DNA from: Promethearchaeota archaeon
GTDB lineage: Archaea; Asgardarchaeota; Lokiarchaeia; Sigyniarchaeales; SOKP01
Assembly: GCA_016840165.1 (NCBI GenBank)
Contig: JAEOSU010000076.1
Span: forward strand, 86,719 to 150,718
DNA: 64,000 bases
Direction: 5' to 3'
In this document: in pieces, positions 9,791 through 26,637 of the stretch
How the letters are laid out: each line of letters opens with the position of its first letter
How positions within the stretch are numbered: the stretch's first letter is position 1
Notes under the pieces: model-generated
What the model saw: the letters and a program-made list of their open reading frames with translations, nothing else
Told to the model about the DNA's origin: nothing
Databases searched by the model: none
Made by a program: the position numbers and the translations under genes

Positions 9791-10894
9791 TTAATATTTT
9801 GAAGGTTTTTTTGATTTTATTTTATATTTTGGTATTTCTTCGATTTTTCGTAATTGATTCTCAAAATCGCGTTTTTCTCTTAAAAATCGTTCTTTATCTC
9901 TTTCTAATTTACCTCTCTCTTTTTTAATTGTATTTTTTTCACTTTCAATGGTAATTTTTTCCTTTTCAATTTTAGCATAGTGATTCTTTAAATTTTTTAG
10001 TTTTCTTTCTAAATCTTGAATATTTTGCTCTAATGAACGATATGTTCTTTCAGCTTTCGGAACTTTCTTATTTAATTCTTTCAGTTTTGCTTCTTCCTCT
10101 TTTCTAGATTTTTCTAGATTTCTTACCTCTCTATTAACATTATCTCTGAACTCTTCTAAATTAATCTTTTTCTTTTCAATATCACGAGCTTTTAGGTTAA
10201 TGTCTTTTTTCTTATACTTAATTTTATCTTTATATTCTTTTAGACGTCTCTTCTCATCTTCAATACGATTCCGTTCATCTGTGAGTTCTCGTTTCATATC
10301 ATTAATATCATTATTAAGCATATCCTTCTCACTCTTTAATTGTTTGATCTCTTTTCTTAAGTCCATTAACTTGTCTTCGTGTTTTTCAATAGTACTCTCT
10401 AAAGCATTTTCCCTTCGTTCCATACCCGGTATTTTTGATTTAATCTCTTTAATCCGATCTTCTGTTTTAGCCTTTTCCTTCTGTAAATTGATTTTTTCAT
10501 TATCTAAGTCATCTTTAATAGCATTTAACTTATCTTGATAACGTTTTAAATCATTACTTTTTTTATCTAATTCCTTTTCTTTAATTTGGAGTGTATTTTT
10601 ATGTTGTTTTATATCATTTCTCATTGTTTCTATTTCATTTTTTAAATTATCGCGTTCCTTTAAGAGATTTCGAACTTCTAATTCCTTTTGTTTTCTTTTC
10701 TTCTCAAGATCATCAATATCATCGCTATAATCTTCAATCTTCTTTAAAACTTTTTCCCATTCAATTTTTTCTTTAACTAATTTAGCTTGCTCATCTTTTA
10801 TTTTTTTGAGTAATTTTTGATTTGTAATATTATCTATTTCATTTTGGGGTGTTTTTTCTCGAATTTGATATTTAGGAATAGGTTTATCGTTCAT
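9791..10894 (-). CDS. long coiled-coil protein (K/E-rich)
   Basis: 367 aa that are almost entirely charged heptad-like sequence. No enzymatic motif. Confidence 0.65.
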   Translation of the reverse strand: MNDKPIPKYQIREKTPQNEIDNITNQKLLKKIKDEQAKLVKEKIEWEKVLKKIEDYSDDIDDLEKKRKQKELEVRNLLKERDNLKNEIETMRNDIKQHKNTLQIKEKELDKKSNDLKRYQDKLNAIKDDLDNEKINLQKEKAKTEDRIKEIKSKIPGMERRENALESTIEKHEDKLMDLRKEIKQLKSEKDMLNNDINDMKRELTDERNRIEDEKRRLKEYKDKIKYKKKDINLKARDIEKKKINLEEFRDNVNREVRNLEKSRKEEEAKLKELNKKVPKAERTYRSLEQNIQDLERKLKNLKNHYAKIEKEKITIESEKNTIKKERGKLERDKERFLREKRDFENQLRKIEEIPKYKIKSKKPSKY

Positions 10895-11067: not shown

Positions 11068-11478
11068 ATGAATTTTGAAGATGAGGAGGAAGAATTCGAT
11101 GAAGAATTCGATGAAGAATTTGATGAAGATCTGGACGAAGATTTGGATGAAGAGAGAGATTTTGAATTAAAAAAACCAACTCCAGAAGTTCTTGCAACTA
11201 AAACTCCAAAAGGTACCATTAGCTCGGAAGCAAAAAAGATTTCCGTATATCTAATGTCAACAATAGGGCCGGGGGAAAAGAAACAAAAATTATTAATATA
11301 TACTGGATATCAGATTAAGGATATCAAGGAAACAGTGGCTAATATATTTGGTTTAGACCCCTCTGATTTTCATTTATCTACAGGAGGAGTCACAATGGAG
11401 GAGGGATTAACGCTAAATGATTATAATGTTAATGATGGAGATGATATTTTGTTAATTCCGGCTAGCACTGCTGGCTAA
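11068..11478 (+). CDS. ubiquitin-like beta-grasp protein Ubl1, acidic N-terminal extension, ends ...STAG-stop
   Basis: The C-terminal ~80 aa align with Ubl2 (13316-13660); the last 19 residues DYNVNDGDDILLIPASTAG are identical. Terminal Gly is followed directly by TAA. GGTG SD upstream. Confidence 0.8.
   Translation: MNFEDEEEEFDEEFDEEFDEDLDEDLDEERDFELKKPTPEVLATKTPKGTISSEAKKISVYLMSTIGPGEKKQKLLIYTGYQIKDIKETVANIFGLDPSDFHLSTGGVTMEEGLTLNDYNVNDGDDILLIPASTAG
11089..11160 (+). repeat. six tandem 12-nt coding repeats (GAAGAnnTnGAn) encoding (EEFD)3(EDLD)2EERD
   Basis: Read directly: gaagaattcgat x2, gaagaatttgat, gaagatctggac, gaagatttggat, gaagagagagat. Confidence 0.85.
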
Positions 11479-11523
11479 ATTGTCAAAATATTTAATATTT
11501 AAAATCAATAAGATATTTTTAAT

Positions 11524-12306
11524 CTATTTTTTATTTCTTGGAATTAAAGCAATTTCATCATCATCATCAATATTATACTCCCTTATAAGGGAATTTTCAT
11601 GTAATAATATTCCGCCAGAGGAGAGTAAAAAATCATCGAGATTATATCCAAAAAATACTGCTATTCTTTCTTTAAGATCTCTAATGAAATCTGATGATTC
11701 GATTATTAAAATTTTAGTTTTCTCTCCTGGTTCAACTAAGGACCTAACATAAACTCGTATTCTGTCTTGCATCCCTATTTTATTTTTTGGGGGATAATAA
11801 ATAATCTTTTTATTATTCTTAGCTTCCAACATAGATTCAATTAGGACTTTCCTCTCTTCAGCATCATAATATAATAATTCTCTGAGGAAAAATATCTTAT
11901 CCATTTTAGATAGATCTAATATTTCTATCTTCTCTAATTCTTCTGGAATAAATAATGAAAAAATAAACTCATGAAGTTTTGGTATTTCTTCATATGAATC
12001 ATCTGAATCAGCATAATCATCAATTAGAGGCATTGCTTCGAAATAATCATTTAAAAAAGCACTAGAAATTCCTTTATGTGGTTTTCTATTCAAAGGAATC
12101 TTCTTCTTTAAAATTAAATTATCGGGTTCTTTTTTAGATTCTATGATTGTATAGAGAGTAACACTAGGTAAAACAGCAACACTACTTATAATTAGGATTG
12201 AATTTAGAAGGATATGATCTATATTAAAGAAAATAAAGAGAAGATAGATTAAAATAAAGAATATATAGAGAATGATTGTACCAAATAATAGATGCTTTAG
12301 TTTCAT
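11524..12306 (-). CDS. membrane protein (2 N-terminal TM helices) with C-terminal ubiquitin-like domain lacking a terminal Gly
   Basis: C-terminal RVYVRSLVEPGEKTKILIIESSDFIRDLKERIAVFFGYNLDDFLLSSGGILLHENSLIREYNIDDDDEIALIPRNKK aligns residue-for-residue with the Ubl1/Ubl2 beta-grasp region. Confidence 0.75.
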   Translation of the reverse strand: MKLKHLLFGTIILYIFFILIYLLFIFFNIDHILLNSILIISSVAVLPSVTLYTIIESKKEPDNLILKKKIPLNRKPHKGISSAFLNDYFEAMPLIDDYADSDDSYEEIPKLHEFIFSLFIPEELEKIEILDLSKMDKIFFLRELLYYDAEERKVLIESMLEAKNNKKIIYYPPKNKIGMQDRIRVYVRSLVEPGEKTKILIIESSDFIRDLKERIAVFFGYNLDDFLLSSGGILLHENSLIREYNIDDDDEIALIPRNKK

Positions 12307-12391
12307 GATTTTATTTTTAATACCTACTTCTAAATTTTAAATATAAATCTCTTAATATAAATTCCATTGGAATAAATTTGCAATTTCTCTT

Positions 12392-12865
12392 TTATTCCTC
12401 ATTGATTAATTTTCTAACCTCAAAATATTTGTCTTCATTTAAGCAAAATAATACTATTCTATTTTGTCTTCTAATGGTTATCAGTTGTAATTTTTGTAAA
12501 ATCTTAAAATACTTTTTTATAGAATTATAATTTCTTTTTAGCCCATTTGCAATTTCGGTGATTTTAAATTCTTTTAAAGAATTTTTCTGTATGAAACTTA
12601 TTATTTCTTTGACGATACTTTGTTTTAAATAGAAATGTAATTCATCAAACTCAGGATTTAAATCAAATTTGAAAAATACTCGTTGATTTTCAAATTTTTT
12701 AGATCTTACAAATTGAAATTTCTCTAAACAAGATAAATGCCATAATACTTGATTACTTCCAATGTTTATTGCTTTCATAATCTCATTAATATTTGATGGT
12801 GTTTGTTTAATTAAATTAAAGATTTCATTTCTTACTGGATGTTCTATGATGTTATTCTTCATCAA
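12392..12865 (-). CDS. winged-helix (ArsR-like) transcription regulator with two wH modules
   Basis: HPVRNEIFNLI..INEIMKAINIGSNQVLWHLSCLEKFQFV is ArsR/SmtB-like. A second wH-like segment is ITEIANGLKRNYNSIKKYFKILQKLQLI. Confidence 0.65.
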   Translation of the reverse strand: MMKNNIIEHPVRNEIFNLIKQTPSNINEIMKAINIGSNQVLWHLSCLEKFQFVRSKKFENQRVFFKFDLNPEFDELHFYLKQSIVKEIISFIQKNSLKEFKITEIANGLKRNYNSIKKYFKILQKLQLITIRRQNRIVLFCLNEDKYFEVRKLINEE

Positions 12866-12866
12866 T

Positions 12867-13067
12867 TTAGTCCCAGGAATAAGGATTTTTTTTTTTAATA
12901 AGCTTCTTTATGATTTTTTCGATGCTATTTTTATTTATATTTGGGTTTAACTTTACCCTATTACTAATGAATAAGACGATATCTTCAATTGAAAAGAATG
13001 GTTTCTTTTTTAGATATTCTTTAATTAAGTCAAAAACAATATCTTCGGCATAATTGGGGGATTTCAT
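12867..13067 (-). CDS. small hypothetical protein (possible wH fragment)
   Basis: 66-aa ORF directly upstream of the wHTH gene, in a different frame. Confidence 0.35.
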   Translation of the reverse strand: MKSPNYAEDIVFDLIKEYLKKKPFFSIEDIVLFISNRVKLNPNINKNSIEKIIKKLIKKKNPYSWD

Positions 13068-13315
13068 TAGTGTATACTTCTAATATGTTAGATGAAATGA
13101 ATTTATTAATGATTTCTTTTATCTAAAATGTTATCTTTCAGTTCATATTAATTACTAACCATTTATTCAATTTATAAGTATATTTTCTTAGATTAATAAT
13201 GGTATTTATGTCTTTATTCAAGAATTTTCAAAATCATTCCAATTGGTTTTATAATATCATTTTAGCATGTTCTTAGTAAGTTTAAAAATAAACTTTCAAA
13301 AAATAAAAAAAAGAA

Positions 13316-13660
13316 GTGAAAAAAATGAGTTTTGATAATGATTTTGATGAGGAATTGGAACCATTAAAGTCTAAAACGCCTACAAGTAAAACACCTTCAG
13401 CAGGAAAGAAACTGACTCTATATTTTATGTCAACTATCGGTCCTGGTGAAAAGAAAGAAAAGTTAACCGTAAATGATGCTAATCAAGTCAGTGATATTAA
13501 AGAAACCTTAGGAAATTTATACGGTCTTGACCCTGATGAATTTCATTTATCATCTGGTGGAGTTACAATGGATGAAAGTAATCAATTAAAAGATTATAAC
13601 GTAAATGATGGAGACGACATTCTTTTAATTCCTGCGAGTACGGCGGGTAGACTTATATAA
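13316..13660 (+). CDS. ubiquitin-like beta-grasp protein Ubl2, pro-form ending ...STAG-RLI
   Basis: Paralog of Ubl1. A three-residue extension follows the Ala-Gly. The ATG at 13325, preceded by GAAGTGA, is the likelier start. Confidence 0.85.
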   Translation: MKKMSFDNDFDEELEPLKSKTPTSKTPSAGKKLTLYFMSTIGPGEKKEKLTVNDANQVSDIKETLGNLYGLDPDEFHLSSGGVTMDESNQLKDYNVNDGDDILLIPASTAGRLI

Positions 13661-13682
13661 TTTTCTATATAATTTATAATAA

Positions 13683-13716
13683 GAAGGCTTTAGTCCTTCA
13701 TTTATTTTTTTTTTAT
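13683..13716 (+). terminator. hairpin plus oligo-T tract between Ubl2 and E1
   Basis: GAAGG-ctttagt-CCTTC stem-loop (13683-13699) followed by tttattttttttttatt. Confidence 0.35.
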
Positions 13717-13727
13717 TAATAATTAAG

Positions 13728-14960
13728 GTGATAGGATTGGAGAAAAATTCAGATTTTTTTGGTAAAGAACTGTCAGTGGAGGAACGAGACTTATATGACC
13801 GCCAATTTCGCCTTGAAGGTTGGTCACAAAAGGTAGTAAAAAATTCGAGAGTCCTAATAGCAGGTGTAGGAGGTTTAGGTTGTGAAACTGCTAAAAATTT
13901 AGCTATGTTAGGTGTGGGTCATATCGATCTTGTTGATTTAGATATAATTGAACATTCTAATTTAAACCGACAAATACTTTTTACTGGTGCTCAAATAGGA
14001 GAATCCAAAGCGATTGTAGCTGCTAGAAAATTGAGGGAAGTAAATCCAAATATAACTATAAAAGGGTATTCTACCTCTTTAGAACGATTAAATCCTGAAA
14101 TTTATCAAGCCGTTGATATTGTGGTTGGTGGTCTTGATTCGATGATTGCTCGTTTAAACTTAAATGCGCAGTGTATAAGATTTAGAAAACCTTTAGTTGA
14201 TGGGGGCGTATCTGGTTATCATGGGCATATCTATACCGTGTTTCCTTATAAAAATGCCTGCTATGAGTGTAACCCATTACCTATTGGCGAAAGTGATGAA
14301 ATGGCAGCTTGTACTGTAGTTGGAATTCCCCGGAAAAGAATTCACTGTGTTTTTAAAGGGGATATGGCTTTTAGAGAAAAATTTGATAGAGATCCAAATC
14401 CAAAAGATATGAATGATATAAAATATATTCAAAAAGCGGCAAATGAATTAGTAAATAAACATAATTTCTTACCCGAATACACTGAAGATGATATTGTAAA
14501 AATTATTGATAGACATGATCCAGGATTAATTACAGTTAATGCCGTTATTTCTGCTTTACAGTCTCATGAGACTATAAAGATTATTCATTGGAAAAAAGGG
14601 CATAAAGGATTAGGAGCGCCCATACAGGATTATGTTATCTTTAATGGTATTACCATGAAATTATATCATATTGAAAAAAAAAGAAACCCAGAATGTTCTC
14701 AATGTGGAAGAAATGCTCGACGTGTTATTATAAAAATGAAAGCACAGTCACCTTGCATGAATATTATAAAAATTTTAAATCATCATGGGTATAACTTAGA
14801 GGAAAATTTTGAACCCATTATTACACTATTGGATTTCAATGATATACAAGTTATTGATTTAGAAAAGAATGCTAGAGAAAATGATTTACGTAATTTAGAA
14901 TTTTTAATTGTAGCTGGGTTTGTTGGTGGAGAAATTTATGTAACACTAAAATTAAAATGA
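13728..14960 (+). CDS. ubiquitin-activating E1-like enzyme (ThiF/UBA family)
   Basis: GVGGLGCE nucleotide loop and NLNRQ. Two CxxC pairs (CYEC, CSQC). MAACTVVGIPRKRIHC resembles the eukaryotic UBA3-type catalytic-Cys segment (Cys codon 14310-14312). C-terminal ~70 aa is a possible ubiquitin-fold domain. The TTG at 13737 after AAGGTGAT may be the true start. Confidence 0.9.
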   Translation: MIGLEKNSDFFGKELSVEERDLYDRQFRLEGWSQKVVKNSRVLIAGVGGLGCETAKNLAMLGVGHIDLVDLDIIEHSNLNRQILFTGAQIGESKAIVAARKLREVNPNITIKGYSTSLERLNPEIYQAVDIVVGGLDSMIARLNLNAQCIRFRKPLVDGGVSGYHGHIYTVFPYKNACYECNPLPIGESDEMAACTVVGIPRKRIHCVFKGDMAFREKFDRDPNPKDMNDIKYIQKAANELVNKHNFLPEYTEDDIVKIIDRHDPGLITVNAVISALQSHETIKIIHWKKGHKGLGAPIQDYVIFNGITMKLYHIEKKRNPECSQCGRNARRVIIKMKAQSPCMNIIKILNHHGYNLEENFEPIITLLDFNDIQVIDLEKNARENDLRNLEFLIVAGFVGGEIYVTLKLK

Positions 14961-15046
14961 ATTTATGATCAAAATAAATATTTATAATAATTGTCTTATC
15001 AAAAACTATAAGAATTGAAAATTAAAAAAAAAGGGGTTGAAAAAAA

Positions 15047-15574
15047 TTGAGTTTAAGAAGTAGTCGTATTTCTCGAGATTTTGCGGGTTTAAAAAAGATG
15101 CTTAAGAATGGAACCATGGTTCAATTAAAACCATTTAATCCAAAAAAAAAAAGTATTGATCATTTAGCTATTACTATCAGAGGTCCCAAAGGAACAGCTT
15201 ATGCAGGGGGTCTTTTTAAATTAGAAATGAAATTCCCTGCTCAATATCCTAAGCAGCCTCCATTTGTGAGACTCCATACACCAATTTGGCATCCAAATTT
15301 TTGGCCTAAACCAAGTGAATATAAAGGACAAAGAAATATCTGTTTAGCATTAGTTGATCCTTCTTTAGTTGGTAAAAAAGGAGGTTGGAGTCCTTCGAAA
15401 ACAGCAGTCACTATAGTGCAAGCAATAATTGCTATGTTAAATACACGCGGAAAATATGTTAATCCAACAGATGTATTTAATAAAAAAGCAGCAATCGAAA
15501 TGATAAAGGATCAAAAATTCTTCGAGAAAAAAGTTAAAAACCTAGTAAAGAAGTATGCAAAAGAAAAGTGGTGA
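15047..15574 (+). CDS. ubiquitin-conjugating E2 (UBC fold)
   Basis: HPNF...QRNICLAL gives an HPN motif and catalytic Cys (codon 15341-15343). The N-terminal helix SRISRDFAGLKKML is UBC-like. Confidence 0.87.
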   Translation: MSLRSSRISRDFAGLKKMLKNGTMVQLKPFNPKKKSIDHLAITIRGPKGTAYAGGLFKLEMKFPAQYPKQPPFVRLHTPIWHPNFWPKPSEYKGQRNICLALVDPSLVGKKGGWSPSKTAVTIVQAIIAMLNTRGKYVNPTDVFNKKAAIEMIKDQKFFEKKVKNLVKKYAKEKW

Positions 15575-16388
15575 AAATAATATGAAAAATGATGAAATTC
15601 CTGATGATCCAATTAGAGAAGCCATTAAACAAAAAATAAAAAACAAAATCAAAAAAGAATTACTTAAAGAAATATATTCGGAATTACAATTAGAAGAAGA
15701 AATTACAAACGAGATAACCACTGAAATAATTAGTGATCCTTTATTAGAGCATTCCGAGATCAATAAAGCTAATCTTGAACCGATTCCTTCAGAGATCGTA
15801 GAAACTTCTGCTAGTAATGGTAAATTTAAAGCACCTATAGCTATAAATGTAAAATCCATTCTAAAAATTGCCAGTCACGCATTAAAATATGCTCATTCAA
15901 AAATCCCAAGAGAAGAATGGGTTGAGGTTATTGGCTTACTTGCTGGAACATTTGATAAAATTCATAACGTTTTATATATTGAAGATGTTTATCCAATGGG
16001 ACATGGTAATGCTGTGTATGCGGAAATTAAAGATTATAAAAATTATGTAAGAGCTTTTAAAGATATCAAAAAAAGTAGATTGTTTATATGTGGCTGGTAT
16101 CACTCTCATCCATCCTATGGATGCTTTATGTCTAGAGAAGATTTAGGTACCCAATCGCGGTATCAAACATTATGGGATAAAGCAATAGCACTTGTAATTG
16201 ATCCTTATCAGATAAATGGAAAATCATTGGGTTTTGAAATTTATCGTGCGAATTTTAAAAAACGAGAGTGGTTTTCTGTACCTTTTGAGATTAATGGAAA
16301 TTTAGATGTGGGAATGTTACCTGAAATTTTGGATTTTATGAACCCAATTATAGAGGGGAAGGCTGCTTATTTAGAATATGATGAATAA
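15555..16388 (+). CDS. JAB1/MPN/Mov34 (JAMM) metalloisopeptidase, Rpn11-like, with ~95-aa N-terminal extension
   Basis: EVIGLLAG plus GWYHSHPSYGCFMSREDL give E...HxHx7Sx2D. An alternative start is the ATG at 15582, 8 nt after the E2 stop, with GGTGA as SD. Confidence 0.9.
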   Translation: MQKKSGENNMKNDEIPDDPIREAIKQKIKNKIKKELLKEIYSELQLEEEITNEITTEIISDPLLEHSEINKANLEPIPSEIVETSASNGKFKAPIAINVKSILKIASHALKYAHSKIPREEWVEVIGLLAGTFDKIHNVLYIEDVYPMGHGNAVYAEIKDYKNYVRAFKDIKKSRLFICGWYHSHPSYGCFMSREDLGTQSRYQTLWDKAIALVIDPYQINGKSLGFEIYRANFKKREWFSVPFEINGNLDVGMLPEILDFMNPIIEGKAAYLEYDE

Positions 16389-16408
16389 AATCAAAGGTTG
16401 ATTAATCT

Positions 16409-17548
16409 ATGGTAAAAAAGAAAAATTTGATAATCCTTCTTTTTGTCTTAATTGGTTTTGTCCATGGGTTGATCTCAATTTCATTAAATATTTTTCTAAC
16501 TTGGGTATTTATCGGTTTGTGGATATTTTTCATAATAAAAATTTTCGAAAACATAAAACAACATCGCGAATTTAATTCACCTTATAATACGGCATTTTTT
16601 GTTATTCTTCCTTTATTTATTGGGATCTTTTATTCTATGTGGGGCTACTATACGAATTTATTTGGTGAAAATCTCTTTATGAACTCCAATATCTATTTTA
16701 GTTTATGGAGCTTAATTTTTGGATTTCCATTTGTTTTATATGGATCTTATTCATTATATCGTTGCTTTAAAAAGTATAATGTGATCTATTTTGGGAGAAG
16801 AGCTGTAAAGGCTAAAGTGGTTGGATATCTACTATCATTCTCAATAATTTTTGGTATTATTCTTTATTGGATAATTTTTTACTCTATTATTGAGTTTTTT
16901 AATTATTTATTAATTCCTTTACATTTCTCTTTAGATTTAAATCTTTTAATCATTTTTATATTGACTATTCTAATTCTTATTTTATTTGGATTTTTAAATC
17001 CTCAAAGACGATTATCTCCTTTAACTCGAGAATATATAGCACAGCGTACTCGAAGAATTAATGCTCTCACAAGACCTAGTATTCAAAATCAGAGAGTAAA
17101 GACAACTAACCGATCAACTTCTCCCTCAACTAGAACAGTGACCCGATCAACTACTACTTCCTATAGATCCTCAAGGATCACTCCAAAATCTAAAAGCCAT
17201 GCGAGGAGAACAACAAGAACCACTGAAACTAAAAAGACAAAAACTAATCTAAAAATTCGAAATATAAATGCTTATAAGCCAAAAGCGGCATTTCTGACAG
17301 AAGAAGATTTCAAATGCATTTTCTGTTTTAATTTGCCAAAATTTCCCGAAGATAAAGGTAGAGGGATCATTTTATGCCCTAATTGTAGATATCCTTCCCA
17401 CGCAGATGAGTTTAAAGACTGGTTAAAAACTTCAAATTTATGTTCACGTTGTAGCGCACCCATTCCCTCTAGCTTTAGAAGAAATCCAAGAATTATTAGT
17501 ATAAAAAATTATATTTCTATCTATAAACAAATTTTAAAAAAAACATAA
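16409..17548 (+). CDS. polytopic membrane protein with S/T/R-rich linker and C-terminal RING-like zinc finger (candidate E3)
   Basis: About six hydrophobic helices in the first 200 aa. The linker is RSTSPSTRTVTRSTTTSYRSSR... The C-terminus is CIFC-x16-CPNC-x4-H-x13-CSRC. Confidence 0.7.
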   Translation: MVKKKNLIILLFVLIGFVHGLISISLNIFLTWVFIGLWIFFIIKIFENIKQHREFNSPYNTAFFVILPLFIGIFYSMWGYYTNLFGENLFMNSNIYFSLWSLIFGFPFVLYGSYSLYRCFKKYNVIYFGRRAVKAKVVGYLLSFSIIFGIILYWIIFYSIIEFFNYLLIPLHFSLDLNLLIIFILTILILILFGFLNPQRRLSPLTREYIAQRTRRINALTRPSIQNQRVKTTNRSTSPSTRTVTRSTTTSYRSSRITPKSKSHARRTTRTTETKKTKTNLKIRNINAYKPKAAFLTEEDFKCIFCFNLPKFPEDKGRGIILCPNCRYPSHADEFKDWLKTSNLCSRCSAPIPSSFRRNPRIISIKNYISIYKQILKKT

Positions 17549-17580: not shown

Positions 17581-18540
17581 TTATTTATTTGTTCCAATAA
17601 TTCTTCTTAATTCTCCAACCGTAGTTTTTAATTCTGAATATACATTATGGGGATGGATGGATTCATAACTTTCAATAGTGAATTTAATTTTAGACTGATC
17701 CTCCAAATTTGGAAAATCACTCAGGATGAATCTTTTTGCCATTTGTCTGACTACATCCTCAGAAAAAAGTGGATTTAGATGAGCTGTTCGAACTAGCCTT
17801 GCCTCTTCTGGTCTTTTTAGAACTGACTGCATTTTTCCCGACATTGAACCTTCTATGATATCAATTATATCTAAAACATCAATTTTATGATTGTTTAAAT
17901 CTTTAATCTGCACAATAATAGTTCCTTTTGATCGCTGATTATGAGAACTAAAAGGTAAGATATTGAGGAGTTTCTTAATATCTTCTTCCCGCAGATTGAT
18001 ATCTCTTCTATTTTTAATAATTTCTTCAGCATACTCTTGGCTCATTTCTTTTGCACAAGGGCAAACCGTCATACCAACGGCACTTGCCCCAATATAGTAG
18101 TTAAAATCAATCTCTCCTGATTCATCCTTACGGGCTTTTACAAAAGAACTTATATCATATGACTTTTGGATATTTCTTTGTTGTTCATCTTTAGTTTGAA
18201 CGACTATTTTGCCTTCAAGTTTTACATAGACTTTTCTGGTATAAGGATGCTTTTTGAGAAGTTCTCGTGCAATTCTATCTCCTACCACTTCTACAGATGG
18301 TGTTGGTTTGAAAATTACCTCATTTATGATCTCTTCGATAGTTTCAGAGGTGCGAGACATATGAATCCCTCGTTGTTTGGCAGGAAGAGATATCAGTGCA
18401 GAGATCTTAGGATAAAAGGAGTAGCGCTTATTTTCTTGAATGATCTCGACTTTTTTTTCGACACCAACAATCCCAACTTTATCGATAGGAATATCGATTT
18501 TTGAGCCAGAATTCTGTAAATCTTTTTTAAAGTGGCTAAT
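17581..18540 (-). CDS. mptA: GTP cyclohydrolase MptA / FolE2 family; N-terminus extended beyond the ORF-track ATG
   Basis: VCPCAKEMS motif. The in-frame upstream 60 codons encode DLQ...IDKVGIVGV...RGIHMSR, conserved FolE2/MptA N-terminal blocks. There is no ATG/GTG/TTG back to the stop at 18547-18549. ATT lies at 18538-18540. Confidence 0.78.
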   Translation of the reverse strand: MSHFKKDLQNSGSKIDIPIDKVGIVGVEKKVEIIQENKRYSFYPKISALISLPAKQRGIHMSRTSETIEEIINEVIFKPTPSVEVVGDRIARELLKKHPYTRKVYVKLEGKIVVQTKDEQQRNIQKSYDISSFVKARKDESGEIDFNYYIGASAVGMTVCPCAKEMSQEYAEEIIKNRRDINLREEDIKKLLNILPFSSHNQRSKGTIIVQIKDLNNHKIDVLDIIDIIEGSMSGKMQSVLKRPEEARLVRTAHLNPLFSEDVVRQMAKRFILSDFPNLEDQSKIKFTIESYESIHPHNVYSELKTTVGELRRIIGTNK

Positions 18541-18678
18541 TAAGTATCACTAACTTAAAATTATTTATCTATCTAATAAAAGTAGATATCTAATATAAAA
18601 AATATTAATGACCAAGTTTGTTCTACTAAAATTTATAATTTAATTTATATCATTACTATGCTTATCTAATTTAAAAAA

Positions 18679-19848
18679 ATGCCTGAAAAATATCTCTATT
18701 GTAAATTTGGGTTAATAGGAGAGAATTTAGAATTAAAACAAAATATAAATTTGTCATTTGACAAAGAAGGAAAAATAACTGAGTTAAAATTTGATGAGAT
18801 CGAAGCAGACATTAATTTTGATAGAACACGAGAAAATTATGTTATGATTCCAGGATTGATAAATTCTCATATTCATATTGGAGATAGCTTTGCTAAAGAG
18901 AGAGGTCATAATAAAAGATTAATTGAAGTTGTAAGTCCTCCCAATGGCATTAAGCATCTATTGTTGCGGGAAACTTCCGACACCAAAAAAATTAAAGGAA
19001 TTAAATATGCTATACATGAGATGATATCGAATGGAATAACCTATTTTATAGACTTTAGAGAAAATGGAATTAAGGGGATTGAACTTTTACAAAGAGCACT
19101 AAAAGATGAGAGTATTAAATGTTTGATATTCGGCCGTTTTGATCAAATAGATGATCTACAGGAAGTATTTTACAAATCAGATGGAATTGGATTATCAAGT
19201 TATCATCACCTAACCGATGATGTAAAGTTAGAGCTTAGAAGAATGAAATCCCGTCTGTTTAAAAAGATAGCTTGTCATGTTGCTGAACTCAATCATGAAC
19301 CTCTCCTTTTAAATGAAATATTAGAGGATGCTTTAGTCGATATAATTGTACACGGAACACAATTAAAAATTCCCGATCTAAGAAAAATTCAAGAAAAAAA
19401 AATTAAAGTTGTGCTATGTCCGAGGAGTAATGGATATTTTGGACTCGGATATCCTCCAATTAAAGAGATGTTGGAGTTAAGTATTCCTTTTTCATTAGGA
19501 ACTGATAATGTTATGGTTAATAATTTAAACTTATTTGAGGAAATGCGTTATTTATATTATACTGCAAGAAATCAAATAAACGAAGAGGATTTGGGCTATT
19601 TTAATGCTAAAAATATTTTTAAAATGGTTACTATTAATGCAGCTAAAAACTTCGACATTGAATCAGAAGTAGGGTCAATATCCTTAGGTAAAGCAGCTGA
19701 TTTAGTTATGATTGATTTAAATAATCCAAATTTTTACGTTAATAAATTAGATAAAGCTGAGTTCTTTTCATTACTTCTTCATAGGACTAATGTAAGGAAT
19801 ATCAACCAAGTATATATTGGAGGAAAGCTAATTTATGAAAGCGACTGA
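18679..19848 (+). CDS. amidohydrolase-superfamily deaminase-like protein
   Basis: INSHIHIGDS (HxH), CHVAE (HxxE), VHGT and GTDN metal/catalytic motifs, typical of the cytosine/guanine/MTA deaminase branch. Confidence 0.82.
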   Translation: MPEKYLYCKFGLIGENLELKQNINLSFDKEGKITELKFDEIEADINFDRTRENYVMIPGLINSHIHIGDSFAKERGHNKRLIEVVSPPNGIKHLLLRETSDTKKIKGIKYAIHEMISNGITYFIDFRENGIKGIELLQRALKDESIKCLIFGRFDQIDDLQEVFYKSDGIGLSSYHHLTDDVKLELRRMKSRLFKKIACHVAELNHEPLLLNEILEDALVDIIVHGTQLKIPDLRKIQEKKIKVVLCPRSNGYFGLGYPPIKEMLELSIPFSLGTDNVMVNNLNLFEEMRYLYYTARNQINEEDLGYFNAKNIFKMVTINAAKNFDIESEVGSISLGKAADLVMIDLNNPNFYVNKLDKAEFFSLLLHRTNVRNINQVYIGGKLIYESD

Positions 19849-20503
19849 TAAACCATATATCATTTTAAGTGCCGCTATGACCATCGATGGTAAAATAGCT
19901 TCTAAAGAAGGAGACACTGACATATCAGATGATAAAGATTGGAGGGAAGTCCATAAACTCAGAACTAAAGTAGATGCAATAATGGTTGGGAAAAATACAA
20001 TATTGGCTGATAATCCAAAACTCCATATTAAATTTTATTCCCATTCTGGTTATTATCGTATCGTAGTAGATAGTAATTTAGTAACGCCAATAGACTCTAA
20101 TGTTATTACATATCAACTAGACTTATATCCTACTATTATTTGTACTACTGAAAATGTACCTATTGATAAAATTAGGGAATATGAAGCAAAAAATGTTAAA
20201 ATTATTACTTCTGGTCGAAAGGAGCACGTTGATATAAATGCTTTATTACTAAAATTACATCAAATGGGTATTAAGTCAATTCTATTAGAGGGGGGAGGAA
20301 ATTTAAATTGGAGTTTTATAAAAGAAAACTTAGTGGATGAAATTCGATTGACAATCGCTCCTTGGATTATTGGAGGGCAAAATGCGATTAGTTTGGTTGA
20401 GGGAGATGGCTTCTCGCAAATGAAGAATGCACCTCGGTATCATCTATCTAAAGTTAAAACAAGAAATAATTATGTAAAATTGAAATTTTTGAAATTGACA
20501 TGA
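19835..20503 (+). CDS. arfC: 2,5-diamino-6-ribosylamino-4(3H)-pyrimidinone 5'-phosphate reductase (RibD C-terminal domain type)
   Basis: ILSAAMTIDGKIA, VGKNTILADNP, LLEGGGNLNWSF. Overlaps the upstream gene by 14 nt and the downstream gene by 4 nt. Confidence 0.85.
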   Translation: MKATDKPYIILSAAMTIDGKIASKEGDTDISDDKDWREVHKLRTKVDAIMVGKNTILADNPKLHIKFYSHSGYYRIVVDSNLVTPIDSNVITYQLDLYPTIICTTENVPIDKIREYEAKNVKIITSGRKEHVDINALLLKLHQMGIKSILLEGGGNLNWSFIKENLVDEIRLTIAPWIIGGQNAISLVEGDGFSQMKNAPRYHLSKVKTRNNYVKLKFLKLT

Positions 20504-21603
20504 GAAAATCGACATTACCTATAGAAAAACTCAAATCAATATCATTACGCAAGATACAAAAAAAAGTAAGTGAGATTACGAGTGAGTTTAATAAAGAACA
20601 TGATAAAGTTATAACTTATTCAAGGAATTTTACAATTTCATTGTCTAATTACTGTCTAAATCATTGCAGTTATTGTTTTTACAATCATCGGGTGCCTAAA
20701 GATCAAGATAATAGAAATACCATATTACTTTCTAATTCTAAATTAGACTCATTAATTGATAGTGCAAAAAAATTTGATTGTAAAGAAGCACTAATTTTAT
20801 CTGGGGAAGTACCAGACAGTTTTCAAATTGTAAGAGATGAACTTAAAGCCAGAGGTTTTGCGTCATTTTTCCGATATTTGGTCACTTTATGCAATAAACT
20901 TTTGGATATGAACTTCTTACCTCATACTAATGTGGGGTTAATCTCTTTTGATTATATGAAAGAATTGAAGAATATTAATGCATCAATGGGATTAATGTTA
21001 GAGAGTACGTGCGAAAGATTATCAATGAAAGGAGGAGTTCATGAATTTTCTCCTGGAAAGATGCCGGAAAAAAGAATTAGGTTTATTGAAAATGCGGGAA
21101 AACTTAAAATTCCGTTCACGACTGGTCTATTATTAGGGATCGGAGAGGATGAAACAAATAGGATTGAGGATTTATTTTTAATATACGAACTACATAAAAA
21201 GTATGGTCATATACAAGAAATTATCTTACAAAATTTCATAGAGAAGCAGAATATTCAATATCATCCCATTAGGCCTATACCCATAGAAGAAATACTCAGA
21301 ATAATTGGTATTGCTAAAATAATTATGGGAAATGAAATTGAAATCCAGGTTCCCCCAAATCTTTTAATGGGTTATGAAAAAGAAGCAATAACAATGGGGA
21401 TTACTGATTTTGGAGGTATATCGCCAATAACATTAGATTATATCAATCCAACTCATCCATGGCCCCAAATCGACTATTTAACAAAAATTTGTAAAAAAGA
21501 AGGGTATGAATTGAAAGAAAGATTACCTATTTATGAGAAATTTATTAGAAAAGAAGGATTCTGTTCAAAAAAAATTAAAGCTGTAATTAATAAAATAATG
21601 TAG
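20500..21603 (+). CDS. cofG: FO synthase subunit 1 (7,8-didemethyl-8-hydroxy-5-deazariboflavin synthase), radical SAM
   Basis: ITYSRNFTISLSNYCLNHCSYCFY is a CofG-type CxxxCxxC context. Confidence 0.82.
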   Translation: MRKSTLPIEKLKSISLRKIQKKVSEITSEFNKEHDKVITYSRNFTISLSNYCLNHCSYCFYNHRVPKDQDNRNTILLSNSKLDSLIDSAKKFDCKEALILSGEVPDSFQIVRDELKARGFASFFRYLVTLCNKLLDMNFLPHTNVGLISFDYMKELKNINASMGLMLESTCERLSMKGGVHEFSPGKMPEKRIRFIENAGKLKIPFTTGLLLGIGEDETNRIEDLFLIYELHKKYGHIQEIILQNFIEKQNIQYHPIRPIPIEEILRIIGIAKIIMGNEIEIQVPPNLLMGYEKEAITMGITDFGGISPITLDYINPTHPWPQIDYLTKICKKEGYELKERLPIYEKFIRKEGFCSKKIKAVINKIM

Positions 21604-21609
21604 AGACAT

Positions 21610-22734
21610 ATGGCAGCAGCATATAACCATATTGATAAAAAAGTAAAGAAAATTCTCAAGAAAGCTGAAAATTCTGAGGAGATAACCAAAGATGAGGCTT
21701 TGGAATTATTAAAAGTAACCGGAAATGAATTTTTTGCTCTACAAAATACTGCGAATAACCTTTGTTTTCAGAAAAAAAATAATGTGGTAACCTTTGTTAT
21801 AAATCGTAATATTAATTTTACAAACATTTGTTATCAGGGATGCCGTTTTTGTTCCTTTAGCGTTCCTAATAAAGAAAAAGATGCTTTTCTTTTAAGCATT
21901 GAAGAGATTCATGATAAAACTGTGCAAGCATATCATTCAGGATGTACTGAAATATGCATTCAAGGGGGTATAAATCCAGATTTAAATTTTGAATACTATT
22001 TAGATATCTTAAGTATTGTTAAAGAAGTTAATAGGAATCTCCATATTCATGCCTTTTCTCCCCAGGAAATTTTCTACATGGCGAAATTGCATGGTACTAG
22101 CATTGAAGAAACTTTAAAGGAACTTAAGAAAGCTGGATTAGATTCAGTTCCTGGAACTGCAGCAGAAATTCTTGTTGATAAAGTAAGAAAGATTATTTGT
22201 CCAAAGAAAATATCAACCGCACAATGGATTAATATTATAAAGACAGCCCATAATCTGGACATTCCAACCACTTCAACGATAATGTATGGCCATATTGAGG
22301 ATCTTATAGATCGTGTAGAGCATTTACACATTTTAAGAGAAATTCAAAAACAAACTTCTGGGTTCACTGAATTTGTACCACTTCCTTTTGTAAACGAAAA
22401 TCCCATATTATCTAAATTACCTAACTTTCCCTTAAGACTACATTATGGTATGGGAGATCTAAAGTTATTTTGTGTTGCAAGGCTATTTTTTAATAATTAT
22501 ATAGACAATATTCAATGTTCGTGGGTAAAATTAGGTCCTAAGATGGCTCAGGTTTCGTTAAACTATGGTGTAAATGATTTCTCCGGCACACTGATGGAAG
22601 AAAATATATCAAAGTCAGCGGGAGCAGATTATGGAGAGTATTTATCACCTCAAGAAATAACATCTATAATAAAAACAGCAGGAAAAAAACCTGCTCAAAG
22701 AGATACTTTGTATAAAATTTTAAAATTTTATTAA
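21610..22734 (+). CDS. cofH: FO synthase subunit 2, radical SAM
   Basis: VTFVINRNINFTNICYQGCRFCSF. Adjacent to cofG. Confidence 0.82.
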   Translation: MAAAYNHIDKKVKKILKKAENSEEITKDEALELLKVTGNEFFALQNTANNLCFQKKNNVVTFVINRNINFTNICYQGCRFCSFSVPNKEKDAFLLSIEEIHDKTVQAYHSGCTEICIQGGINPDLNFEYYLDILSIVKEVNRNLHIHAFSPQEIFYMAKLHGTSIEETLKELKKAGLDSVPGTAAEILVDKVRKIICPKKISTAQWINIIKTAHNLDIPTTSTIMYGHIEDLIDRVEHLHILREIQKQTSGFTEFVPLPFVNENPILSKLPNFPLRLHYGMGDLKLFCVARLFFNNYIDNIQCSWVKLGPKMAQVSLNYGVNDFSGTLMEENISKSAGADYGEYLSPQEITSIIKTAGKKPAQRDTLYKILKFY

Positions 22735-22747
22735 TTTAGAATTCTAA

Positions 22748-24625
22748 TCATTTCCTTGCTTGCTCTTGAAGCAGATTTAGAATGAAATGTTGGGTAATTA
22801 AGTCAGAACTTATTTTTCCAAGAACGATTCCCTCTTTAACTACAGGCATTGCTGAAATTTTATATTGCTCAAGTTCTCTGACTATTTCTAGCAAACTCAA
22901 GTCGGGAGATGCTGTAATTACATCCTTCGTCATAATATTTTCAAGATTAGTAGCACTAATTCCTTCAGCAATAGCTTTCGTTATATCCCAATCTGTTAAT
23001 ACTCCAACGAGTTTCTGATTTGAAAGAACTGCAACTATTCCACTATTTTCATTTATCATTAATTCAGCAACTTGTTGCATACTACTTTGAACATCAATAA
23101 CTGGAATAGTAATCATTATATCTTTTGCTGTTCTCAGACTTTCCTTTCGAGAAAGGCGTTGAAGGCTTATCTGTTCAGCCGCAGCAGATGGTAACAGGTC
23201 CTGATTTGAGGTTAAAATTTCGACTAACTCATTCATGTTATGTTGAATCACATTTTCTCTATATTCTCCTCCAGCTTCTAATCGTTCCATCGAGAGTTTA
23301 GCAAATTCCTTAGCATGATCCTTTAACCATATCTCAACCTTATCTGGATGTCCTAATAAGTTGTTTGGGATTTGAAGATTATCTGGTGTTTTTATTATAT
23401 GTTCTTGTGCTGCAAAAATTACTCCTCCAGAATTAACGAGATAATCATTCGCAATCATAATTCCTTTTCCTCGATAAACCACTTGCTCCATAACTGTTCT
23501 TGCCGCTTTCCTATTGGGATCAGGAGAGTAGGTATTCGCTCCTTCCACTATTAATGACCAATTTCCAATACGATCGACCGTCATTGAAGGATTATCAATG
23601 TTACTTACCCCCAAATAGTTAAATATTGGTGCTGCAGGAACTAAACAAAAAGCATTTTCACGAAGTAGGTTATTAGGATTATTTGAATATTTGATTGGAT
23701 GTTTGTGGCCTTTAGATATAATTTTACTCTTAAAATAATTAAGTGATACTCTCTTCTCTTCTACCCATATATCAAATAGTTCTTTAACTGGTAATCCATC
23801 CTCATCATAAAGATAGCCCTCTAAATCGCTTATTCCAATTACTTTCGCCTTTGGAAGACGCTCGGAAAGTATTCTAGCTGCATGGGCTCCCACAGCTCCA
23901 AAGCCTTGAATAATCAAGCTCACTTCTTCTGGTTCTGGAACTTCCAATGTAGAAAATTGGGAAAGCACAGTTAGACGTGGCATTATTTTTAATAAAGTTT
24001 GCAAAGCAATTACGACTCCTCCAGCCGCAGCACCAAGCTCATCAATTCTATTTCCTCCCATATCTGCAGTTTTAGATACAGCACTATCAATTCCATTTTC
24101 AATTGCAATAGTTTTCATATCCATATCATTTGTACCTACATCTGGACCGGGTACATATACATTTTTATATCTATTAATTAATCTTGCAAAATGGCGTACA
24201 ATCTCGGTGTGTTGATCTGGAGGTATATCTCGTTCTGCTATAATTCCAGACTTACCTCCTCCATAAGGAAGATTGGCTGCTGCATTCTTTAAAGTCATTC
24301 CTCTTGCTAGGTTGTATATATCTGAAGGTACTAAATCTGGAAGCATTCTAATTCCTCCCATACTAGGTTTGCCCATTGATAAATTATCAACGACTAAATA
24401 TCCACCTACTTCTAGTTCGGAGTTTTTATCCCATATACAGGCTACAAGCTGTGGCCCTAATTTATCACTTATAATCCCAATGCTAGACAGTAAGTTTTCA
24501 TCAGTTTTAGTAAATTCTAAATAACACAGACCATTTTCTTCGAAAAGACGGTTTTTAAGGATATTTTTGGGTAGATGTTCTTTTAGAAAACTTTCCATAT
24601 TTTTAGGAATCATTTTTACCACCAA
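22748..24625 (-). CDS. Glu/Leu/Phe/Val-family amino acid dehydrogenase fused to a C-terminal CBS pair
   Basis: GGIRM and KNAAANLPYGGGKSGI (catalytic Lys region), GFGAVG Rossmann loop. The C-terminal ~125 aa hold two CBS motifs (ITIPVIDV...GVLTDWDI; MTKDVITA...GKISSDLI). Confidence 0.88.
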   Translation of the reverse strand: MVVKMIPKNMESFLKEHLPKNILKNRLFEENGLCYLEFTKTDENLLSSIGIISDKLGPQLVACIWDKNSELEVGGYLVVDNLSMGKPSMGGIRMLPDLVPSDIYNLARGMTLKNAAANLPYGGGKSGIIAERDIPPDQHTEIVRHFARLINRYKNVYVPGPDVGTNDMDMKTIAIENGIDSAVSKTADMGGNRIDELGAAAGGVVIALQTLLKIMPRLTVLSQFSTLEVPEPEEVSLIIQGFGAVGAHAARILSERLPKAKVIGISDLEGYLYDEDGLPVKELFDIWVEEKRVSLNYFKSKIISKGHKHPIKYSNNPNNLLRENAFCLVPAAPIFNYLGVSNIDNPSMTVDRIGNWSLIVEGANTYSPDPNRKAARTVMEQVVYRGKGIMIANDYLVNSGGVIFAAQEHIIKTPDNLQIPNNLLGHPDKVEIWLKDHAKEFAKLSMERLEAGGEYRENVIQHNMNELVEILTSNQDLLPSAAAEQISLQRLSRKESLRTAKDIMITIPVIDVQSSMQQVAELMINENSGIVAVLSNQKLVGVLTDWDITKAIAEGISATNLENIMTKDVITASPDLSLLEIVRELEQYKISAMPVVKEGIVLGKISSDLITQHFILNLLQEQARK

Positions 24626-26635: not shown

Positions 26636-26637
26636 AT

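Follow-up and report, generated by a model that had tools for sequence, protein, structure and literature searches.

A ubiquitin-like conjugation locus with a putative membrane-anchored RING ligase in a Lokiarchaeia-type Asgard archaeon

Gene content of the locus

We analysed a 64,000-nucleotide stretch of DNA (the window; contig JAEOSU010000076.1 of assembly GCA_016840165.1, positions 86,719 to 150,718) from an Asgard archaeon, Promethearchaeota archaeon, and focused on a gene cluster for ubiquitin-like (Ubl) protein conjugation. A sequence-only reading of the same DNA had described the cluster as a eukaryote-type ubiquitylation cassette with membrane-associated components, and all open reading frames (ORFs) that it listed exist where it placed them. 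The cluster encodes two free Ubl proteins (Ubl1 and Ubl2), a protein with transmembrane (TM) helices and a third Ubl domain (TM-Ubl), an activating enzyme (E1), a conjugating enzyme (E2), a JAMM metalloprotease and a membrane protein that ends in a variant RING domain (TM-RING), which is a putative ubiquitin ligase (E3). The features are listed below with their window positions and strands; lengths are in amino acids (aa), structure models are from AlphaFold2 (AF2), and the alignments A1 and A4 are defined with TM-RING.

11068-11478 (+): Ubl1, free ubiquitin-like modifier with an acidic N-terminal extension, ending ...LLIPASTAG-stop (PF00240, 24.5 bits)
11524-12306 (-): TM-Ubl (260 aa), two N-terminal TM helices, a helical middle and a C-terminal Ubl domain (PF00240, 31.7 bits, residues 187-255)
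13316-13660 (+): Ubl2, free ubiquitin-like modifier, first gene of the operon, ending ...LLIPASTAG-RLI (PF00240, 29.9 bits)
13728-14960 (+): E1, with a Rossmann adenylation domain (G46-x-G-G-x-G), CxxC pairs at 178 and 323 and a catalytic-Cys segment (ThiF, 201.8 bits)
14310-14312 (+): codon of E1 Cys195 (MAACTVVG), predicted thioester site (PDB alignment, motif position)
15047-15574 (+): E2, UBC fold, HPN at residues 82-84 and Cys99 (UQ_con, 90.5 bits)
15341-15343 (+): codon of E2 Cys99, predicted thioester site (alignment to solved E2s)
15555-16388 (+): JAMM, Rpn11-like JAMM/MPN+ metalloprotease with an N-terminal extension of ~95 aa (JAB, 50.4 bits)
16409-17548 (+): TM-RING (379 aa), a 6-TM domain (residues 1-195), an amphipathic helix (204-221), a disordered linker and a C-terminal variant RING (AF2, family alignment)
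17315-17452 (+): variant RING zinc domain of TM-RING, with C303, C306, C323, C326, H331, E334, C345 and C348 (invariant in A1 and A4)

Ubl2, E1, E2, JAMM and TM-RING run in the same direction with gaps of at most 86 nt: 67 nt separate Ubl2 from E1 and 86 nt separate E1 from E2, E2 and JAMM overlap by 20 nt, and TM-RING begins 20 nt after JAMM. These five genes probably form one operon, as the sequence-only reading had proposed. Translation of Ubl2 most likely starts at the ATG at 13325 (MSFDND...), judging by orthologues, which begin with MSFD...; an A/T-rich, TATA-like element and a purine-rich stretch lie upstream of the gene.

Profile hidden Markov models for ubiquitin, ThiF, UQ_con and JAB all matched proteins of the cluster, and RING domains were reached through family profiles. 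The E1 had been read as eukaryote-type rather than MoeB/ThiF, and solved structures bear this out: it scored 137 bits against SAE2/UBA2, 131 bits against UBA1 and 126 bits against UBA3, compared with 105 bits against MoeB and 85 bits against ThiF. Its Cys195 aligned with the cysteine of the CT(I/V) motif of UBA2, and its C-terminal ~80 aa are a possible ubiquitin-fold domain. We rejected the protein as an equivalog of ThiF (141.7 bits, cut-off 275) or MoeB (138.6 bits, cut-off 266). The HPN...C active site attributed to the E2 is present, with a spacer of 14 residues between HPN and Cys99, and a PDB search returned 281 E2 matches in which Cys99 was aligned on the catalytic cysteine. The motif given for the JAMM protein (HxHx7Sx2D) is likewise there, and the metal site is intact, comprising Glu121 and H183-S-H-x7-S-x2-D. 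The best PDB matches of this protein were 6fjv/6fju ('26S proteasome regulatory subunit N11-like protein'; E 4.5e-15), which we take to be CsRpn11 of Caldiarchaeum, followed by eukaryotic RPN11/PSMD14, CSN5 and AMSH.

PF00240 matched all three predicted Ubl domains. The score of Ubl1 is slightly below the gathering score of 25.4 bits, yet Ubl1 is a paralogue of Ubl2 and of the Ubl domain of TM-Ubl. The Pfam results also included a weak Rad60-SLD match. Ubl1 is encoded in its mature form; Ubl2 carries a three-residue tail, RLI, and therefore needs processing, for which the Rpn11-like protease of the operon is the obvious candidate by analogy with CsRpn11 (PMC6043591, PMC5654768). In the 35 related loci described below, all complete free Ubls have the C terminus ...LLIPAS[T/I/V]AG; most genes stop there and a few add 1-7 residues. 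Ubls from contigs labelled Hodarchaeales or Helarchaeota and from unlabelled contigs end in [H/V/T]STAG. At the other end of the protein, the N-terminal extension of both free Ubls carries [K/R]-x-K-T-P-[S/T] after an acidic FDEFDEDL segment in 58 of 60 orthologues. In a weak but consistent alignment with ubiquitin, Ser, Val and Asp stand at the positions of Ile44, Lys48 and Lys63, and PASTAG replaces LRLRGG. Judged by this alignment, the free Ubl is a distinct Asgard modifier, with interaction surfaces that are not those of a ubiquitin orthologue. The trypsin remnant expected from the Ubl on a lysine is 19 residues long (DYNVNDGDDILLIPASTAG).

Two of the more distant loci have tandem di-Ubl genes made of two complete head-to-tail units (L042, labelled Hodarchaeales, 4330-5019; L041, unlabelled, 2951-3688). 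Each unit has its own acidic/K-T-P extension and ends ...HSTAG. These genes encode polyubiquitin-like precursors, for which endoproteolytic processing would be required.

TM-Ubl has two hydrophobic helices at its N terminus, as judged by hydropathy, and a basic segment after helix 2. Its distribution of Lys and Arg residues fits an N-in/C-in topology, in which the remainder of the protein is cytoplasmic. The middle region (about residues 85-165) is helical and conserved. The Ubl domain ends ...LIPRNKK here and ...LIP[S/R]xKK in the family alignment (A2); it lacks a terminal Gly and is therefore not conjugatable. The search for homologues found 367, and all of the 120 listed were full-length or near full-length, at 51-99% identity. 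The AF2 model is poor, with a predicted local distance difference test score (pLDDT) of 50. Used as a profile, A2 matched ubiquitin variants and Hub1 alone in the PDB (E>=0.02), where it found neither a relative of the middle domain nor a specific link to the UBLs of Herp or TMUB. Among the contexts examined, TM-Ubl was seen in Lokiarchaeia-type loci alone. Most simply, it would be a membrane-tethered, non-conjugatable Ubl that acts as an adaptor or scaffold.

The membrane protein TM-RING and its variant RING domain

Hydropathy gave 5-6 hydrophobic helices in TM-RING, and the AF2 model has helices at residues 2-23, 26-52, 61-82, 99-121, 135-164 and 177-195 (pLDDT 75-90). The linker that follows the amphipathic helix (residues 221-283, ~60 residues) is disordered, basic and rich in Ser, Thr and Arg. 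Lys and Arg counts fit an N-in/C-in arrangement, and the zinc domain is therefore predicted to be cytoplasmic. The sequence-only reading had called two non-enzymatic parts of the cassette membrane-embedded. Hydropathy, AF2 and Lys/Arg counts do predict anchoring for both TM-Ubl and TM-RING, but one of them is the putative E3 itself.

TM-RING belongs to a family that domain databases do not name. None of its 370 homologues has a Pfam domain, all 33 with a source name are called 'hypothetical protein', and an NCBIfam scan of TM-RING gave no usable match. The named family members are labelled Lokiarchaeota, Helarchaeota, Hodarchaeales or Kariarchaeaceae, and the source names of homologues of the two membrane proteins, TM-RING and TM-Ubl, include "Candidatus Lokiarchaeota". 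We used a family alignment of TM-RING (A1), a zinc-domain profile from membrane members alone (A4) and a profile to which soluble relatives had been added (A3). A search of 1.84 billion representative proteins with the A1 profile found 125 relatives (representative clusters), and it reached soluble relatives at E values of 1e-8 to 1e-3. The matches inspected belonged to the family or were short, soluble proteins with a RING; in this library, which carries neither names nor taxonomy, none of them could be recognised as eukaryotic.

Divergent full-length members have the pattern C-x2-C-x13-19-C-x2-C-x4-H-x2-E-x10-11-C-x2-C, and the predicted zinc ligands are seven Cys/His residues plus the invariant Glu334; here, a cross-brace cannot be read from the weak AF2 model. 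The short soluble relatives, which sit outside ubiquitin operons, have H-x2-H in place of H-x2-E and score close to or at the gathering threshold of Pfam zf-RING_2 (<=31.3 bits). Consistent with a RING identity, the A4 profile matched RNF24 (E=2.1e-6), EL5 (1.4e-3) and RNF4 (3e-3) in the PDB. The A3 profile matched RNF24 (5.7e-9), EL5 (4e-7) and RNF165/Arkadia (3e-6), as well as HRD1, synoviolin and AMFR (1e-4 to 7e-4). Ile304 and Trp338 are invariant in A1; the residues that match them in the small RING finger protein of Caldiarchaeum, I30 and W58, are required for E2-dependent activity (PMC5654768). The earlier designation of the protein as RING-like therefore stands at the level of family profiles, which match RING-H2 ligases, but not at that of a direct Pfam match. 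These data suggest that the zinc domain is a derived RING-H2 and that TM-RING is a putative membrane-anchored E3.

In a Foldseek search of the PDB with the full-length TM-RING model, the top 27 matches were all RING or U-box chains, at E>=0.44; the membrane domain found no match there, Hrd1 included. The variant RING also has a core, C-P-x-C-x-[YF]-P-[AS]-x-x-x-E-...-C-x-x-C, in common with the C-terminal zinc domain of IFT144/WDR19, which the profiles matched at 2e-5 to 4e-4, and there were weaker matches to the RINGs of the GATOR2 subunits WDR24 and WDR59. The variant RING may share an origin with such protocoatomer-type RING-like domains, or the likeness may be one of convergence.

Three of the more distant loci encode a six-TM protein of 192-195 aa right after TM-RING (L042, 11259-11846; L041, 8309-8887; L036, 5884-6462). 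It has neither linker nor RING and looks like a distant paralogue of the TM-RING membrane domain ('RCFTKYEF' compared with 'YRCFKKYNV'), and phmmer matched the two at E values of 4e-7 to 4e-5 in a 124-sequence set. The window has no gene for this TM-only paralogue.

Gene order in related genomes and neighbouring genes

We collected relatives of the locus by a scan with the E1 protein, keeping one genome per species, and obtained 35 loci (L001-L035). All lie in metagenome-assembled genomes (MAGs) of Asgard archaea, most of which bear the label Promethearchaeota or Promethearchaeia (the Lokiarchaeia lineage), and their E1 proteins are 66-87% identical to that of the window. Nine of the loci (L004, L006, L018, L019, L022, L026, L027, L034 and L035) lie in MAGs labelled Hod-, Hermod-, Odin- or Thorarchaeota. 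The E1 identity of these nine is 78-81%, except for 66% in L026, and, L026 apart, they match the flanking synteny of Promethearchaeota-labelled loci wherever the flanks are covered. The phylum labels of bins that carry the locus under these four names are probably unreliable.

Among close relatives, the order is coiled-coil gene, Ubl1, TM-Ubl, winged helix-turn-helix (wHTH) gene, 66-aa gene and then Ubl2-E1-E2-JAMM-TM-RING, and it is kept in ~30 of the 35 loci. The arrangement of the cassette genes is not due to chance. Beyond the loci of close relatives, TM-RING directly follows E2-JAMM in 6 of 6 informative contexts. L036 reads Ubl-E1-E2-JAB-TM-RING, and L041 has the same order but with a tandem di-Ubl gene. 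In a JGI contig (P0304), E2-JAB-TM-RING is followed 1.6 kb downstream by Ubl-E1. The order is di-Ubl ... E1 ... E2-JAB-TM-RING in L042 and L043, whose TM-RING cluster is labelled Hodarchaeales, and Ubl-E1-x-E2-JAB-TM-RING in L044, whose TM-RING cluster is labelled Helarchaeota. Across Asgard classes, the conserved gene that occupies the E3 position in operons of this type is thus the one for the membrane RING protein.

L026 is without Ubl1, TM-Ubl and the wHTH gene. In L030, the upstream half (coiled-coil gene, Ubl1, TM-Ubl and wHTH gene) is replaced, and the locus has a 422-aa ORF of TnpB/OrfB-type appearance at 4459-5727 (-), which suggests that it was rearranged by a mobile element. L042 (3754-4185, -) and L036 (805-1185, -) encode a conserved protein of 126-143 aa with two similar halves, 'ISGRAWALLRRAKYQLN...SYSEAI' and 'EAHQLLQQIK...FTLSDAIEFLV'. 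Its gene lies divergently upstream of Ubl, in the position that the wHTH and 66-aa genes hold in the window, and the protein may be an alternative regulator. The further conserved genes of the locus in the window are as follows:

9791-10894 (-): 367-aa coiled-coil protein with K-T-P motifs at both ends, candidate partner or substrate (only coiled-coil-type Pfam/NCBIfam matches)
12392-12865 (-): ArsR/TrmB-like double winged-helix (wHTH) protein, candidate regulator of the locus (HTH_5, HTH_45 and ArsR-family matches; syntenic in most related loci)
12867-13067 (-): 66-aa conserved protein, co-transcribed with the wHTH gene (no family match; 52-81% identity in related loci)

The coiled-coil gene lies outside the interval that the sequence-only reading had covered. 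It is divergent beside Ubl1 in 28 related loci and lies beside the operon Ubl in L026. Its orthologues share an N-terminal 'IPKYQIREKTP' in 27 of 28 cases and a C-terminal 'IK[ST]KTPS' tail, as 1-4 tandem repeats, in 28 of 28. A basic, proline-rich K-T-P-repeat protein is encoded two genes after TM-RING in L042 (12039-12719; Hodarchaeales-labelled) and L036 (6557-7174). Within the system, the K-x-K-T-P motif probably serves for recognition or as an acceptor element. It could mediate docking, form the consensus around an acceptor lysine or be a Thr-Pro phosphosite.

The flanking genes encode alanyl-tRNA synthetase (AlaRS), FtsZ, a tetratricopeptide-repeat (TPR) protein, a nucleotidyltransferase, FolE2, an amidohydrolase, RibD_C, CofG/H-like radical SAM enzymes and other pterin or cofactor proteins, and the remaining genes of the window are metabolic and housekeeping. 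Directly 3' of the operon (17581-31198) lie pterin/deazaflavin cofactor genes, for a FolE2-type GTP cyclohydrolase, RibD_C, two CofG/CofH-like radical SAM proteins, a pterin-binding protein and dihydroneopterin aldolase, and upstream are the FtsZ gene (4614-5750) and the gene for a DUF1464 protein. No link of these cofactor, FtsZ and DUF1464 neighbours to the Ubl system is apparent. Three small proteins of 121-123 aa (3707-4072, 62570-62941 and 63372-63737, all +) have 1-2 TM helices and a C-terminal zinc ribbon (Zn_Ribbon_1/DZR); the latter two, which are clear paralogues (47 of 119 aligned positions identical), have an extra CxxC pair at the N terminus. The base composition of the window is ~31% G+C, and tRNA and Rfam scans of the whole window gave no match.

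A probable membrane-linked conjugation pathway and its precedents

We consider it likely that the locus is a chromosomal, vertically inherited Ubl conjugation system of a Lokiarchaeia-type Asgard archaeon, with an integral membrane protein as its E3. This reading is based on the domain assignments, the catalytic motifs and the predicted topology, together with RING homology at the level of profiles and the conserved linkage of the genes. From these we infer the biochemical steps, the substrates and the adaptor role of TM-Ubl. The enzymes would be expected to form E1~Ubl and E2~Ubl thioesters in an ATP-dependent manner, and isopeptide formation would depend on the E3. Two paralogous modifiers would be made, and JAMM would trim RLI from Ubl2 in the manner of CsRpn11. 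The E1 would adenylate the terminal Gly, take the modifier onto Cys195 and hand it to Cys99 of the E2. The charged E2 would then dock on the cytoplasmic variant RING through the Ile304 and Trp338 positions, and proteins in or at the cytoplasmic membrane would receive the modifier on lysines; the same JAMM protease could reverse the mark. TM-Ubl may act as a membrane adaptor that links the ligase to Ubl-binding factors (the E2, or Cdc48/proteasome), or it may scaffold the ligase.

Tagging probably takes place at the cell membrane. [quoted passage not shown] Its membrane part is supported by the predicted anchoring and by the predicted cytoplasmic position of the Ubl and RING domains, whereas its ESCRT variant is weakened, as detailed below. 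An ERAD-like function is an attractive analogy drawn solely from shared architecture.

Several observations weigh against a conjugation system with a membrane E3. In the close loci, the flanking housekeeping genes are syntenic too; synteny in these 35 loci is therefore weak evidence of functional linkage, and it is the divergent contexts that carry the argument. TM-RING gave no Pfam match at E<0.01 and no RING family at E<=0.1 over residues 1-379. Within the zinc domain, ligand 4 comes from a Cys further upstream, part of a C-x2-C knuckle, Glu334 stands at the position of ligand 6, and the linchpin Arg/Lys after the last Cys is missing (Ser349). The RING region of the AF2 model has a pLDDT of 45-70, and its Foldseek matches are non-significant. 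TM-Ubl is absent beside the operon in L026, in L030 and in the Hodarchaeales- and Helarchaeota-labelled contexts, and it is therefore an accessory rather than a core part. The modifiers do not end in di-glycine: their conserved terminus is Ala-Gly, and of the two glycines only the last is kept. We know of no archaeal E1 on which an Ala-Gly tail has been tried.

It is possible, if doubtful, that the locus encodes a general cytosolic modifier system in which the anchor does no more than localise or regulate the ligase and the substrates are soluble, the K-T-P coiled-coil neighbour being one example, and are not membrane proteins bound for quality control. The K-x-K-T-P motif is common to the Ubl tails, to that soluble neighbour and to the basic K-T-P-rich proteins of L042 and L036, and the flexible linker of ~60 residues would let the RING reach soluble targets. 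However, few parts of TM-RING are as conserved as its TM domain, which has many invariant polar and aromatic residues, and a TM-only paralogue is encoded beside TM-RING in other Asgard lineages. These two observations suggest that the membrane part is more than an anchor.

More specific, and tentative enough that we would call it a conjecture, is the proposal that the six-TM RING family is the dedicated E3 of the Ubl-E1-E2-Rpn11 operon throughout Asgard archaea and pairs with TM-Ubl in Lokiarchaeia. It would be a prokaryotic counterpart of ERAD and of endosome and Golgi-associated degradation (EGAD), comparable to Hrd1-Usa1 and Tul1-Dsc3, and would send membrane proteins to Cdc48 and the proteasome for extraction and degradation. 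K-x-K-T-P would serve as a recognition or acceptor element and, in the N-terminal tail of the modifier, as a chain-forming site, and the cytoplasmic membrane would be topologically equivalent to the ER membrane.

An ESCRT-sorting signal, in which the membrane E3 tags cargo with Ubl and ESCRT-I proteins of the ubiquitin E2 variant (UEV) type read the tag for budding or sorting, seems unlikely here. Asgard UEV/Vps23 proteins do bind ubiquitin, several Asgard classes have ubiquitin genes linked to ESCRT genes (PMC9192718; bioRxiv 10.1101/2023.07.25.550441), and a membrane-anchored E3 would be well positioned to mark cargo. However, we found no ESCRT-family Pfam domain (Snf7, Vps4, Vps25, Vps22, Vps28 or UEV) in the ORFs of at least 110 aa that were scanned across the 64 kb, namely all such ORFs of the window except four short ones nested on the opposite strand inside longer genes. 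Hatano et al. report that the ubiquitin and ESCRT regions are separate in Lokiarchaeota (PMC9192718). UEV binding relied on a hydrophobic patch, whereas the Ubls have Ser at the Ile44 position, along with the Val and Asp noted above. The RING E3 that acts on UEV-Vps23 was assayed in solution, and its gene lies in an ESCRT-linked cluster rather than behind E2-JAMM.

A smaller chance still attaches to the view that the last gene encodes no E3 at all, being a membrane protein with an unrelated zinc ribbon in a ligase-free cassette with direct transfer from the E2. The missing Pfam RING match, a weak Pfam match to Zn_ribbon_15, the non-canonical zinc ligands and the absent linchpin would fit this view, as would the best single-sequence PDB match, to the zinc domain at the C terminus of eukaryotic IFT144 (E=0.013), a domain not known as a ligase. 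Against it, the profiles match genuine RING-H2 ligases over the full domain at E 2e-6 to 6e-9, and the E2-contact positions Ile304 and Trp338 are invariant.

We regard as very improbable both a module for defence against viruses, like Bil or CBASS Cap2/Cap3 of bacteria, and a sulfur-carrier pathway of the MoeB/ThiF type: PADLOC 'E1-E2' models do match the E1 adenylation domain (<=61 bits) and MoeB/ThiF models match the E1 at ~140 bits, but the latter scores are far under the equivalog cut-offs and eukaryotic E1s score higher in the PDB, the PADLOC matches to the E2 and JAB proteins are negligible (E 0.008 and 3e-4) with none to the Ubls or TM proteins, the locus keeps a fixed chromosomal position between housekeeping genes in 35 genomes, and a sulfur pathway has no need for an E2, RING or JAMM protein. 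Defence systems (Bil, CBASS Cap2/Cap3 and 6A-MBL) were rejected as candidates, with PADLOC matches to the generic E1 domain only and a non-mobile context.

The enzymatic cassette in itself will not surprise specialists. As the sequence-only reading had acknowledged, such cassettes are established for Caldiarchaeum and Asgard archaea (PMC5654768, PMC6043591, PMC9192718, bioRxiv 10.1101/2023.07.25.550441), and they have been reconstituted from Caldiarchaeum (PMC5654768, PMC6043591) and Helarchaeia (bioRxiv 10.1101/2023.07.25.550441). Relative to these, we found no description in the literature searched of the membrane variant-RING family, of an Ala-Gly modifier with an acidic/K-T-P tail, of the membrane-anchored Ubl or of the K-T-P coiled-coil protein. 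Nor did the literature searched describe a TM RING ligase or an ERAD-like system in Asgard archaea, although coverage of subscription journals was incomplete and a prior description is possible. The E3 screen of Hatano et al. used the UFL1 signature alone (IPR018611; PMC9192718) and would miss TM-RING, and domain-based surveys miss it because it has no Pfam match. In reviews of Cdc48-dependent degradation at the membranes of organelles, archaea are still given no more than a "primitive precursor" of the cascade (PMC13328587).

Asgard ubiquitin cascades were thus established, but a link to membranes other than the association with ESCRT was missing. The conserved membrane E3 within the cassette is probably of interest, with pre-eukaryotic membrane ubiquitylation made directly testable: TM-RING is a concrete, clonable candidate for asking whether the ubiquitylation of membrane proteins predates the endomembrane system. 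The distinct modifier, with its ...STAG terminus, acidic plus K-T-P tail and tandem di-Ubl genes (L042, L041), can be tested with recombinant proteins.

In eukaryotes, several membrane RING ligases work with a partner that has a UBL and two TM domains (TMDs), namely Hrd1-Usa1/Herp in ERAD, Tul1-Dsc3 in the Golgi Dsc complex (EGAD) and gp78 or RNF185 with TMUB1 (PMC11555709). Tul1 has 7 TM helices and a C-terminal RING, Dsc3 has a UBL and 2 TMDs, and the UBL of TMUB1 recruits p97 (PMC11555709). Like these complexes, the locus encodes a polytopic protein with a C-terminal, predicted cytosolic RING-H2-type domain and a separate, non-conjugated UBL/two-TM protein, and the A3 profile reaches the RINGs of HRD1, synoviolin and AMFR. 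By contrast, the domain order of TM-Ubl is the reverse of that of Dsc3 and TMUB1 (PMC11555709), with the TMDs first and the UBL last, and the locus has no Derlin, Ubx or Cdc48 gene. Neither Foldseek against the PDB nor the 1.84-billion-protein profile search found a polytopic membrane domain homologous between TM-RING and Hrd1/gp78-type ligases. The likeness to Hrd1-Usa1 and Tul1-Dsc3 is an analogy of architecture; apart from the RING and the common ubiquitin fold, no homology was detected.

Plant and animal membrane-anchored ubiquitin-fold (MUB) proteins also hold a non-conjugatable ubiquitin-fold domain at the plasma membrane, and plant MUBs recruit specific E2s. Unlike TM-Ubl, MUBs have no TM helices and are lipid-anchored through a C-terminal CaaX box. 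The locus resembles the SUMO pathway in that SAE2/UBA2 is the best solved relative of its E1, its modifier has a flexible N-terminal extension with a short Lys-containing motif, and there is a weak Rad60-SLD match; in SUMO-2/3, the N-terminal extension holds the chain-forming consensus lysine. Unlike in SUMO, the E2 has no specific likeness to Ubc9, the E1 consists of one chain rather than a heterodimer, and the Ubl fits the ubiquitin family better.

Among archaeal systems, the operon of Caldiarchaeum subterraneum (genes for ubiquitin, an E1-like and an E2-like protein and a small RING finger protein, with an adjacent Rpn11 gene; PMC5654768, PMC6043591) has the same five functional parts clustered. 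The two systems have in common an E1 with a catalytic Cys, an E2 with HPN and Cys, a JAMM protein resembling CsRpn11, pro-modifiers with a short C-terminal tail, and a RING that retains the Ile and Trp positions for E2 contact. The E3 of the window, however, is a 379-aa six-TM protein rather than a small soluble RING finger, and its RING has ligands 4 and 6 altered and no linchpin. The window modifier ends in Ala-Gly, and its N-terminal extension is acidic and carries the K-T-P motif; two free Ubls are accompanied by a membrane-anchored one, and the JAMM gene lies within the operon.

The E1/E2/RING-E3 cascade of Helarchaeia, which mono-ubiquitylates UEV-Vps23 (bioRxiv 10.1101/2023.07.25.550441), and the ubiquitin-ESCRT clusters of Asgard archaea (PMC9192718) are similar to the window system in having a eukaryote-like cascade, pro-ubiquitin processing and a RING E3. 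The Helarchaeia system has an ESCRT-linked cluster, a RING E3 with an N-terminal loop that was purified and assayed in solution, and a di-glycine ubiquitin, whereas the window has no ESCRT neighbours, a membrane E3 and a ...STAG modifier. A Helarchaeota-labelled contig also has an operon of the TM-RING type and, if its label holds, this class has both kinds of system.

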